This document shows, piece after piece, positions 12,001-18,000 of a stretch of 64,000 nt of DNA. The position numbers were made by a program. Numbering within the stretch: position 1 is the first letter of the stretch; each line of letters opens with the position of its first letter. The stretch lies in the NCBI RefSeq assembly GCF_051903065.1, contig NZ_CP178438.1. The stretch is one strand, 5' to 3'. The DNA is from Escherichia coli (lineage in GTDB: Bacteria; Pseudomonadota; Gammaproteobacteria; Enterobacterales; Enterobacteriaceae).

Positions 12001-15000
12001 CTTTTCGCCACGTAACTCATAAGTCCGGTCATTAACGAATGTGTTGACCAGATGAATTATTCCTACTTTATTTCGACCGATCTCAATGCCATCGCTGTTT
12101 TGCTCCATTAATTTCGCAGCATTAACGACCAGGTCAACATAAACCGGTGGCCCCGATACATAGAAAGTACCATTGCCGCCCCCTTTAATTTCATAACGAG
12201 AGTTATACAGACCCGATTTTTTTAAGAAATTATTAAACTCATTCGTCGATACCTTTCTCAGATTAATCAATGCATTACGCATCTCTGATGAGTCATAGAT
12301 ATAAATAGCTTTGCCATCATCATACCAAATAAGCCCCATCTGTGCCGACAGGCGTTCAATCAAGGCATAGGGTTCTGTTAAATCAAAATTTCCGCTGATC
12401 TGTTTCTTCATGGCAAGCTTACTAACTATTGTAGGCTTACCCGCATATGATGAAACCGTTTCAAAAAAACTACGTAGATTTTCTTTATTTGCTACGTATC
12501 CATTCGCTGCTGCGGCATATGCACCAGGAGTCAATAATCCATTAAAAATGCATAAGACTGAAATTAATATAATAGTAATGCGTAATTTTATTTTCATAAC
12601 TTTTTACATAGTTCTCTCGGTGTTTTTCCTAACCGGCTTTTTACTTCGGCTGAAAAGTGTGATGAGGACGAGTAACCATATTTATGCGCAATAGTTGTCA
12701 TATCACTGTTTCCTTCAATGATTTCCAACACGGCTCTGGCAACTCTCCAGCCACATAATTCCGTTTTAACTTTACCACCCAATGCATAACTACATAAACG
12801 GCGAAAATGTGAATACGATACGCCGTAAAGCTCACCAAGATCATAGAGTGAAGTCTGTATGAGCGATTGCGATAATAAATAACGAACCAGTTTATAGCAT
12901 TCTGTTTTTCTTAGATGCTGAAACAGGATTTCATTAATATTATCGCTGCTCAGATAAGTGGCTAAAAACCAGGCTTCACTTGCAACTTTACTGAATAGCA
13001 CAACTTCTGATGCAAAGGGCAAGGCATCAGCAAACAATTCATGATGTTCCCTTTCCACACTCCCCGTTGATTCATCTATAAAAGCTAATAATTTACTCAG
13101 GATATCAATGCGAAGTGGATGATAAATTACTTTCCCTGCAGTTACCTCAATTTGGCTTCGGTCAATGAGCAGTAATATATCTTCCACTACCATTAATTTT
13201 TGATGGTTATTACCAATCGTAATAACAAGGGTTACATCCTTGTTTTCATTTCCCCGTAAGAACCACATTTCAGGGTCCAGTAGGGTTAACTTCTGTCCTT
13301 GAAGCAAAACATTCATTGGAAGTAACAGCCCTTCTTCAATCATGTTTCATCTCCTTATTCCATATTCTCATTCTCCATAAACTTGCTATAAAAACATGAT
13401 TAAAAAGTGATGATTACTATTTATAAAATAATGATTTTGTTATGAGCGAATAGCTATCAGCCACTTACACTAGTACGTCATCCTGTCCATATACAGATTT
13501 GTAACTGTTGATATGTTTTACTTAAACACACCTCGTATTTCTTATAACACTTGTTTGGTAACTATTTTCAATACAAATCATATTTGTTAGTTCTTCATTA
13601 ACACACTGCGAGTGTTTTGTTACTCCCCGCATATATTTTATTCTCTTGTTCGATTCTATTTTTCTTAATCGATCATATGATTTTCTTGTTAGTCGGATTT
13701 ACGAATCATGAGACTTATAATGGAAGGAATGAGACTAAGCGGCCAGGTTAAACCTGTAATTATTGCAGCAAACAACCGATATGTTACTTTTTCTTCCGAG
13801 AAGATAAATATTAAAGTCGATGTCACAACCAGACCTATCAGGTAAGCTAACAGTAATTTATTGATCACTTTTACCTCCCCTTTCGATTTCTCTTTGAACG
13901 GTCCTTTTAATCCAGGACCGCCTCATTATGAAAACTATTTAATTCCCTCATCATTGATAAGGTTGGACATCTCTTTCAACATGAGAGTCATTGAAGCTTT
14001 CGACCAATTTAGCGGAATGATAGGGCTTGGCGCTTCATGCAAAGTTCCCGACTTGTGGATATAGTTATAGCTTTCGGGAAGTGCCATTTCTGGTACGCTC
14101 CTGCCATTTGCACCAATCATATTCTCGCCTGTTATTTGGGCCAATGATCTATTCATAAATTGCACTGAGTCATTCAAATACTCTTCTTTTCTTGATTCTT
14201 TATAAACAATTGCTGCTGATTTTGCATACCATGAGTCAAAAAACCATTCTGCTTCTGTTGATGGAATGAAGCTCTTTTCTCTTTTTGCATGCGAATTTTG
14301 ATCGGTATCAGTTTTAATATCATTGAACCAAAAATTTGCCGACTGATAATTATCCTTCTCGTATCTTTTTATACCATACGGACCTGCTAGTTTTTTAACT
14401 ATTTTTAGAACTTGCTCTTTTCTTCTGGTGTTTATCTTTGAAAGATTTGCAGGATAAATAACATTAAGTAAAGCCGCATCGCCTTCTCTGTAATGTTTAT
14501 CTTTTTCCAGATAACCTGGGGATTCTCCCCCTAAATCAAGCTGTAACGTTATTCTTTCATAACCTTTATCTATGAGGTGGTTCAACCTCGTTGTTGAAAG
14601 AGTTTCATCCAGTTCATTGACTTTAGCTTCGCGTAGTAAATCAGAGACAAAAACAGAGTCTTTCTTCGAGAGTAGGTTTGACAAACGTTCCAGTCCAGAG
14701 GTCACCAGTGCAACGGAAGATGTGTTTAATCGGGCATCTTCCTCCCACGCTCCGGAATCTTCCATAACATAGAAATTGGCTTTATCCAGATAAGCAATCA
14801 GCAGCGCAACCGATTTTAGTCGGTCACCTTTTTGCCAATCTTCAGCGTTAATAGTACCAGTATTGATTGCTTGTATAAGGAGATCAAGATAAAGACCTAA
14901 CGCATCATTTTGTTTATGGTTCCACAGCTGCGGCTTGCCTTCTTCCTGCACATCTGCCATCACGGGGGAGTTGCTGTCAAATCGGATATGCACAGCATTC

Positions 15001-18000
15001 ATTTGCCCGGGAATACCATCCAGTCGTTTTGGGTTGCTAATGATGTCCTGCATCCGCTTAATCTGGTCGGGCGTAGACATATAATCCCACAGGGTGAGCA
15101 GAACCTTTTTTGCGGCTACACTATTTCCCTGGTCTGATACTAATGCCATATAGCCCCATAAACTATCCCTCAGCCAGACAGCATCATAGTGGGTTTCTGC
15201 CGCTGTTTTGTCATCTTCGAAAGTAGAAGCAAGAATAAACGTTCCCCAGGGTTTCTCCGTCAACGTTAACTTTCGTGTGTTTTCTGTTAATGTTAGCAAT
15301 CCTTGAATTTCGTCTTTGGTATAGTGGCTCTTTATTTCATTTTGTAATTTGGCTGAGTGAATCAGAAGACGATAATTAGGATACTTATCTGGATTTAACG
15401 ATAAATAACTTTTATCTGTTGCTGCCCCCGTGGAATTAAGAATGTTAAATACAGATTCACTCGTCACTTCTGCCCCTGTCGCCTGGCATGTGCCGCACGA
15501 AAATATACCAGCGAGCAGAAGAGTTAATGCAGATTTCCCTTTCATAAAATATTCCATCAATCGTTTGTTAAAAGCGTAGATAACCACTTATTTAACAACT
15601 TGAAAATAAGGTATTTTACCTGGGTTGTTATAAAAGGATTGCATTGCGTAAACGCTTTTTATTTACAAAAAAATGGGGAAGTGTTACGGCGATTGCGAAA
15701 AGTCTGAAGCGATTGAATTAAGATAATATAGAAAATCAGATACAACAAAAATGGCAGGTTGATGAGGTGAAGATAAATTGGAGCGGGCGAAGGGAATCGA
15801 ACCCTCGTATAGAGCTTGGGAAGCTCTCGTTCTACCATTGAACTACGCCCGCTTCGAGATGCGTAAGGCATTATAAACCTTACGCTCTCCTTAGCAAGTG
15901 CCGCGCTGCTGACTGCTGATTAATTCGCCATCAGCATTTTGGCTTGCTGCCCTGCGGCGGCAAGTAACGTAGCGGATCAATTGCCGTTGCACGGTAACGA
16001 ATCTGGAAATGCAGGCGAACAGATGCCGCATCCGTGCTCCCCATGGTGGCGATTTTTTACCCAGCCTTCACGCTTTGCCCATTATTTACCAGCATCGTGT
16101 CATTATGGGCGTAAGCCGTAATGTAATCTTCACTGTGTTTAATCATGATGAGATTACCGTAGCCACGCAGCTGGTTGCCCACATACACCACCTTTCCTGC
16201 ACCCGCGGCGTAAATAGGTGTACCCCGTGGAGCTGAGATATCAATCCCTTTATTGCCGCCATCTGCTGTCGAATACGGCATGATAACTTTCCCTGTCGTT
16301 GGCCATAACCAACAACGTTGCCCTACTGGCGGCCAGGAAGATTTCGGTACCGCTGATGACGGTGTAACCGATGCGGTTTTGGTCGTTGATTTGGCGGTTG
16401 ATTTACGTGTACTACTGCTACTTTTCGCCCCACCCAGTTTTAGTTTCTGACCAACTTCAATGGTGTAAGGGGGGGAAATGCCGTTCAGTCGCGCCAGCTC
16501 TTTTACGCTGGTTCCCGTGGTGCGCGAAATACGATATACCGTATCCCCCCGTTTCACGGTGTAAACGGAGCCGGAATACGTTCCTGTATCGGATGATTTG
16601 CTACCCGAACAGCCCACCAAAAGCAGTCCAACCGATAACAACATCACGATACCCAGAGATTTTTTATTCAGGCGTCCCGCACTCAAAATCTTTCCTCGCT
16701 TAAAAAACAAGACGCCATATCATAGCAGCCAGCCTCTTGATACCCAATCTCTTGCTTCTGGAAAAACGCGGTAATAGAGAAAGAGGTTAATTTCATTTGG
16801 CAAAGGGAAGTATCATCAGCAAAATATTCACTGTAGAGGTATCGAATTTCCTGACTTTTTTACCCTATTTCCCATCCTGATGCGTAATAATCCCAATTTA
16901 TCACATTGATTTTATCGCCACTCATATTGATACGTATCACTGCCCCTATTCAGAGTCCTGTTTCGTATCATATCTGTGTTTTTTTAACGTCATCACACTT
17001 CCTTCCTCCCCTAACGCTTATCGTCGTTTCTGGCGTAAATCTTGCCTGCTTAGACTAAATCTTTGCCATAAGAACCAAATGTTCAAATCGAGGGGATTTC
17101 TATGGAAGCGCGGGAAGCAACCGCTACGGGTGAATCATGCATGCGCGTTGATGCCATTGCTAAGGTCACCGGGCGGGCACGATATACTGACGATTATGTT
17201 ATGGCGGGCATGTGTTATGCGAAATATGTACGTAGCCCTATCGCACATGGTTATGCCGTAAGTATTAATGATGAACAAGCCAGAAGTTTACCAGGCGTAC
17301 TGGCGATTTTTACCTGGGAAGATGTGCCTGATATCCCATTCGCTACAGCTGGGCATGCATGGACACTTGACGAAAACAAGCGCGATACCGCCGATCGCGC
17401 ACTGCTAACTCGCCATGTTCGTCATCATGGTGACGCCGTTGCCATCGTCGTGGCCCGCGATGAACTCACGGCAGAAAAAGCGGCGCAATTGGTCAGCATT
17501 GAGTGGCAAGAATTACCCGTTATCACCACGCCAGAAGCGGCGCTGGCAGAGGACGCTGCACCAATCCATAACGGCGGCAATTTACTGAAACAAAGCACGA
17601 TGTCGACGGGCAATGTCCAACAAACAATCGATGCCGCCGACTACCAGGTACAGGGGCACTATCAGACTCCCGTTATTCAACATTGTCACATGGAAAGCGT
17701 AACATCGCTGGCGTGGATGGAGGATGACTCGCGAATTACCATCGTTTCCAGCACCCAGATCCCGCACATTGTTCGCCGCGTGGTTGGTCAGGCGCTGGAT
17801 ATTCCCTGGTCATGCGTACGAGTCATCAAACCATTTGTCGGTGGCGGTTTTGGTAATAAACAGGATGTACTGGAAGAGCCAATGGCGGCATTCCTGACCA
17901 GCAAGCTTGGCGGCATTCCGGTGAAAGTTTCCCTTAGCCGTGAAGAGTGTTTCCTCGCAACCCGTACCCGCCACGCTTTTACTATTGACGGGCAAATGGG

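Follow-up and report, generated by a model that had tools for sequence, protein, structure and literature searches.

An intact copy of pkgA at the edge of the Escherichia coli ETT2 island and its candidate role as an exported GH15-type alpha-glucosidase

The window analysed here is a stretch of 64,000 nucleotides from Escherichia coli (NCBI RefSeq assembly GCF_051903065.1, contig NZ_CP178438.1). In it pkgA is intact; the gene lies where the type III secretion island ETT2 borders glyU and was already described more than 20 years ago. Our preferred reading, to which we give a probability of about 0.55, is that PkgA is a Sec-exported, probably outer-membrane-anchored exo-alpha-glucosidase of the glycoside hydrolase family 15 (GH15) type, and not an injected virulence factor.

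The same gene is known as ECs3736-ECs3737 in O157 Sakai, EC042_3075 in enteroaggregative E. coli (EAEC) 042 and ygeQ-ygeP in K-12 (b2863/b2862). According to citing papers, its naming as a phosphorylase kinase/glucoamylase homologue dates to 2003-2004 (PMC3977695, PMC2808357), and in a review of ETT2 both ECs3736/pkgA (1059 bp) and ECs3737 (606 bp) appear under the description "phosphorylase kinase and glucoamylase" (PMC3977695). The original prediction, made from the DNA sequence alone, was of an exported glucoamylase-related protein at the island edge beside tRNA-Gly; it overlooked both this description and the accompanying proposal of an ETT2 effector, and the gene is not new. The gene is nonetheless real and placed as predicted, with glyU on one side and eivF and eivG on the other. 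The span first given, 13935..15587 on the minus strand, does correspond to the longest open reading frame at the locus (GTG start, 550 amino acids), while RefSeq places the start of a 100% identical gene in strain 23CRST027 (WP_001625848.1, product name "glycoside hydrolase family 15 protein") at the ATG at 15545. This yields 536 amino acids, in line with the product of about 537 that had been expected. That pkgA is not a chance reading frame follows from its homologues, found at E = 0 to 1e-100, and from a ratio of nonsynonymous to synonymous substitution rates (Ka/Ks) of 0.08 against the E. albertii orthologue; the cluster of the 536-residue protein holds 13,903 member sequences. The guess that K-12 retains only fragments of the gene was borne out. 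The same DNA is annotated there as ygeQ ("putative lipoprotein", 264 amino acids) and the pseudogene ygeP, and alignment places a GGA to TGA change at codon 265 (Gly265; 14751-14753), within EDSGAWEE, after which the frame is open until cut by IS2 near codon 378.

PkgA is, by its predicted structure, a GH15-clan (alpha/alpha)6-barrel protein. The AlphaFold2 model, with a predicted local distance difference test score (pLDDT) of 92.1 and a predicted template modelling score (pTM) of 0.91, supports the barrel anticipated in the original prediction. Comparison with solved proteins gave 30.2 for Kribbella flavida isomaltose glucohydrolase (5z3a), 28.2 for phosphorylase kinase alpha, 28.0 for phosphorylase kinase beta, 26.3 for dextran dextrinase, 25.2 for a bacterial glucoamylase (1lf6), 23.9 for Aspergillus niger glucoamylase (3eqa), 23.1 for glucodextranase (1ulv) and 22.5 for S. 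fibuligera glucoamylase (1ayx); Foldseek agreed with this list and with a GH15-type fold. The Pfam GH15 family, PF00723, gave a significant match to residues 108-317 (profile positions 16-207 of 427) at 24.1 bits against a gathering cut-off of 22 (E 2e-5), which passes the threshold barely and over the N-terminal half only. Ten more distant relatives match PF00723 over the same half, at up to 55.6 bits. NCBIfam returned only a sub-threshold fragment match, to oligosaccharide amylase (14 bits against a cut-off of 820). The only solved proteins reached by sequence search were the beta and alpha subunits of phosphorylase kinase; that the closest solved relatives by sequence are these eukaryotic regulatory subunits, not glucoamylases, had also been overlooked.

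The predicted active site was examined by aligning a family profile of 120 sequences to A. niger glucoamylase (reference sequence identical to 3eqa_A). With hhalign, segments S1-S4 (Table 1) fell in register (probability 85.5%, E 6e-7), and the HMMER registers were the same. The full GH15 subsite -1 set is kept: W124, R126, D127, W208, R394, D398 and W406 stand for A. niger W52, R54, D55, W120, R305, D309 and W317. The residues aligned in S1-S4, among them the predicted general acid Glu268, are invariant across the 56 diverse homologues over which invariance was judged. In GH15 the general acid belongs to the alpha5-alpha6 loop, in a W-E-E motif, and W267-E268-E269 of S3 aligns with it. The two motifs singled out at the start, DAVWLRDS and EDSGAWEED, are S1 and S3. 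The residue of phosphorylase kinase alpha that corresponds to Glu268, Glu185, has been named catalytic in a cryo-electron microscopy paper (PMC10978961). R422 and W434 were considered as counterparts of glucoamylase R305 and W317 and rejected, as the alignments give R394 and W406 instead.

For the general base the best candidate is Glu491, because the GH15 base sits in the alpha11-alpha12 loop (PMC12446779), because Glu491 is the sole invariant acidic residue between model helices 454-469 and 513-532, and because, in the best local hhalign alignment for the C-terminal segment, residues L512-M522 fall on L415-A425 of glucoamylase. Searches of the C-terminal half against solved proteins, made with the single sequence, a 26-sequence C-terminal profile and a distant family member, matched nothing past S4. 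A global hhalign pairing of PESYN with glucoamylase LTWSYA was judged a misalignment, and Glu431 (TEAEW; family consensus TEAQW), also invariant, was rejected as the base, lying in the alpha9-alpha10 region. Of the catalytic Glu pair expected from the original prediction, then, the acid is aligned and invariant and the base is proposed from topology and invariance; the pair is plausibly present, and neither this nor the significant Pfam match refutes the prediction.

Export is suggested by the N-terminus, MKGKSALTLLLAGIFSC, which fits a PROSITE-style pattern for a lipobox whose lipidated residue would be Cys17. The features expected of a lipoprotein are there, namely K2 and K4, the hydrophobic core SALTLLLAGIF and, by pattern match, I-F-S-C17; the signal peptide with a possible lipobox that was first proposed thus stands, and accords with the RefSeq name of K-12 YgeQ. 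Residues 1-23 have low pLDDT in the AlphaFold2 model, with residues 6-17 helical. Gly at +2 after Cys17 predicts sorting to the outer membrane, and the E. albertii orthologue, reading V-L-A-C17, has its Cys in the same position. A hydrophobic N-terminal segment was found in 70 of 105 full-length homologues, at least 16 of the 70 being lipobox-like; signal peptidase I type signals occur in Yersinia and many other Gram-negative homologues, and members with Gram-positive-like N-termini have no signal. Judged from these N-termini, predicted Sec export is the rule among Gram-negative members, and predicted lipidation is limited to some lineages.

According to our preferred reading, PkgA would be exported by the Sec pathway; in Escherichia it would most likely carry a lipid on Cys17 that holds it in the outer membrane, on the periplasmic side. 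Its most likely activity would be that of an inverting exo-alpha-glucosidase, cutting glucose from the non-reducing end of an alpha-glucoside or alpha-glucan of the cell envelope and releasing beta-glucose. pkgA would owe its place at the ETT2 edge to common descent with the island and would not depend on ETT2 secretion, and weak selection on it in E. coli would have led to its repeated loss.

Several points weigh against this reading. The Phe at -2 of the lipobox is unusual, and Yersinia orthologues have signal peptidase I type sites instead of a lipobox Cys. Sequence similarity to canonical GH15 proteins is marginal and confined to the N-terminal half, and no sequence alignment, whether with the single sequence, the family profile, the C-terminal profile or a distant member, set Glu491 on A. 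niger Glu400. Recurrent inactivation in E. coli shows that pkgA is dispensable. We found no enzymatic or localisation data on any PkgA-family member in the literature, and no functional study under ygeQ, ECs3736/ECs3737 or related locus tags. Finally, phosphorylase kinase alpha, the closest solved sequence relative, keeps both Glu residues and is inactive on maltose, isomaltose and glycogen (PMC10978961).

The last point also favours an alternative, that PkgA has no catalytic role and instead binds glucan or acts as a regulator, its GH15 pocket serving for ligand binding only, as apparently in the D1 domains of phosphorylase kinase. No active GH15 enzyme is as close to PkgA in sequence as phosphorylase kinase alpha and beta; glucoamylase activity was undetectable in the alpha subunit with both its Glu residues (PMC10978961), and the C-terminal half of PkgA has diverged past the reach of Pfam. 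We consider this alternative unlikely.

A second alternative is that pkgA is a decaying remnant of ETT2 without a current role in E. coli, the copy in the window being simply one not yet hit. Among 5,426 complete E. coli genomes, some portion of pkgA is present in 3,986 and at least 80% of it is covered in 2,968 (55%); the gene is absent from 27%. Its lesions are independent: the nonsense codon and IS2 of K-12, a frameshift in O157:H7, and truncations at nt 1027, 597 and 530 in an evenly spaced sample of complete E. coli genomes. The remainder of the island is wrecked in the window as well. Against decay, comparison with the E. albertii orthologue over window positions 13938-15545 (Ka 0.16; Ks about 2.1, saturated) gave the low Ka/Ks cited above, and PkgA has therefore been constrained in the long term. 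The size of the 536-residue cluster also argues against it, and most full-length copies in the evenly spaced sample are annotated as intact. The repeated lesions suggest that selection is relaxed within E. coli, in keeping with the erosion seen elsewhere in ETT2. Decay as the whole explanation is in our view improbable; it is an account of selection in E. coli and is compatible with a glucosidase biochemistry. The divergence between the two species at pkgA (proportion of synonymous differences, pS, 0.70; amino-acid identity 75%) is far above that usual for their core genes and may reflect long-separated lineages of the island or acquisition on more than one occasion.

The best-known proposal is that PkgA is a type III effector, injected by ETT2 into host cells where it would degrade or deregulate glycogen. 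It is attributed to Pallen 2003; pkgA has since been speculated to be an effector acting on host glycogen in the ETT2 review (PMC3977695), and the EAEC 042 genome paper repeats the proposal for EC042_3075, citing Pallen 2003 (PMC2808357). The ETT2 cluster ends with pkgA in E. coli and in E. albertii alike, which agrees with it, as do the island-like guanine-plus-cytosine content of the gene (0.37-0.43, against 0.51-0.55 in core genes beyond glyU) and the eukaryotic phosphorylase kinase subunits as nearest solved sequence relatives. E. albertii shares the gene order ygeR-pkgA-ghoT-eivF-eivG with E. coli, and the island-edge position is therefore old. Cleavable Sec signals are unsuited to type III effectors, and the predicted Sec-type signal with lipobox is at odds with type III export. 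Nor can ETT2 function in this window, because ygeH is truncated by IS903B, eivC has an internal stop, and the stretch between the two lacks every needle, inner-ring and export-gate gene (4062-7659); many strains without eivF through eivI still retain pkgA. An effector would be expected to have no cleavable Sec signal and a functional cognate system, and PkgA, from its sequence, appears to have the signal and here has no such system. The protein belongs, moreover, to a family of 861 members (at E <= 1e-3), whose Gram-positive-type members have no signal peptide. No secretion-system genes were found near the homologues in any of the four genomic settings inspected beyond Escherichia (Yersinia, Commensalibacter, Bifidobacterium and assembly GCA_027485695.1). 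In those four and in one metagenome contig, no conserved operon or other clue to a substrate was found near the homologue. We regard the effector reading as very unlikely, and to call PkgA a "putative ETT2 effector targeting host glycogen", as is usual, is probably a mistake, because of the Sec/lipoprotein signal, the lack of an adjacent secretion system in all the inspected non-Escherichia settings of this widespread bacterial family, and the persistence of pkgA where ETT2 is destroyed.

The family was delimited by a profile search of 1.84 billion representative proteins (a 50%-identity library); of the relatives counted above, 227 are found at E <= 1e-30. In one distant member the GH15-like domain is preceded by a fused Effector-associated domain 1 (EAD1), in several the N-terminus is longer by about 200 amino acids, and a chytrid gene model joins a GH15-like domain to an M1 aminopeptidase. 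It is conceivable, if on the doubtful side, that the PkgA family is a GH15 branch that is the bacterial sister of the D1 domains of phosphorylase kinase alpha and beta, and that it may have a specificity outside the four known GH15 activities. If so, the substrate of PkgA could reveal a cryptic ligand or activity of the glucoamylase-like domains of phosphorylase kinase, in which an intact active site goes with inactivity on the sugars named above. PkgA is an easily expressed bacterial relative of these domains, and its wider interest is in this sense indirect; pkgA itself is a recognised component of ETT2, in use as a polymerase chain reaction marker for the island.

We examined the neighborhood of pkgA (Table 1). 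Upstream lies glyU, across a gap of 233 nucleotides, with actS/ygeR and xdhA beyond it; downstream are an open reading frame of the GhoT/OrtT family, eivF, eivG/sctC, eivE and eivA. Within the glyU-pkgA gap, 78 bp directly 3' of the tRNA (about 15693-15770) are missing from K-12. A scan for promoters and terminators found sites no more frequent than in shuffled controls. actS/ygeR, encoding a LysM-M23 amidase activator (15931-16686, minus strand), is interrupted by one internal TAA, at codon 218 (16057-16059), with loss of the last 34 residues, and is flagged "internal stop" by RefSeq in the identical strain. The GhoT/OrtT-like gene stays adjacent to pkgA in E. coli, including O157:H7, and in E. 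albertii, whose orthologue matches PF10753. This gene of a small-membrane-toxin family has a strong ribosome-binding site, GGGGAGG; no obvious candidate for an antitoxin gene was seen near it.

Table 1. Positions in the 64,000-nucleotide window of pkgA, its predicted segments and neighboring features.
Feature	Position	Strand	Remarks
pkgA coding sequence	13935..15545	-	536 amino acids plus stop; intact form; 100% identical to the gene of RefSeq WP_001625848.1
Signal peptide (residues 1-16) and lipobox I-F-S-C17	15495..15545	-	Lipobox regular-expression match; Cys17 putatively lipidated
S1, DAVWLRDS (residues 121-128)	15162..15185	-	W124, R126, D127 = A. niger W52, R54, D55 (subsite -1); hmmsearch and hhalign
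S2, W208-N-H-K-Q212-N-D214	14904..14924	-	= A. niger W120..Q124-R-D126; hhalign, invariant columns
S3, EDSGAWEED (residues 262-270)	14736..14762	-	W267-E268-E269 = A. niger W178-E179-E180
Glu268, predicted general acid	14742-14744	-	= A. niger E179, phosphorylase kinase alpha E185
S4, R394-Y-E-K-D398-N-Y400-...-W406	14328..14366	-	= A. niger R305-Y..D309.Y311..W317; hhalign and hmmsearch, invariant columns
Putative S5	13995..14075	-	Glu491 (14073-14075, PESYN), beta-hairpin, then W514-S-K-A517 = A. niger W417-S-Y-A420
GhoT/OrtT-family small membrane protein gene	13689..13868	-	59 amino acids; 66 nt downstream of pkgA, same strand
eivF (type III secretion)	12594-13343		
eivG/sctC (type III secretion)	10894-12597		
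eivC/sctN	6382-7659	-	Internal stop at codon 336
IS903B transposase gene	5396-6364	-	Adjoins truncated ygeH
ygeH, C-terminally truncated	4062-5339		
tRNA-Gly(CCC) glyU	15779..15852	-	ETT2 island boundary

pkgA and ygeQ-ygeP occupy one locus, flanked by glyU on one side and by the ghoT-like gene and eivF on the other. The DNA of the window's pkgA is 98-100% identical to that of thousands of E. coli genomes; it is an intact copy, whereas that of K-12 has the TGA and the IS2 truncation and that of O157:H7 is frameshifted. Since K-12 carries fragments only, work in K-12 cannot address the function of PkgA. With the canonical GH15 glucoamylases, glucodextranases and trehalases (3EQA, 1LF6, 1ULV) PkgA has in common the (alpha/alpha)6 barrel, S1-S4 and the WEE general-acid motif. 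It differs from them in having no starch-binding or beta-sandwich domain, in a Pfam match that is marginal and in the N-terminal half, and in an S5 recognisable by topology and a short local match only. The K. flavida isomaltose glucohydrolase (GH15, PDB 5Z3A) is only 14% identical to PkgA, which has insertions (e.g., residues 407-433) and a signal peptide in addition. The D1 domains of phosphorylase kinase alpha and beta (PDB 8JFK) are cytosolic modules within eukaryotic regulatory subunits of 1,000-1,200 amino acids, with undetectable hydrolase activity (PMC10978961), while PkgA is a stand-alone bacterial protein, by prediction exported, with an extra N-terminal region of about 80 amino acids.

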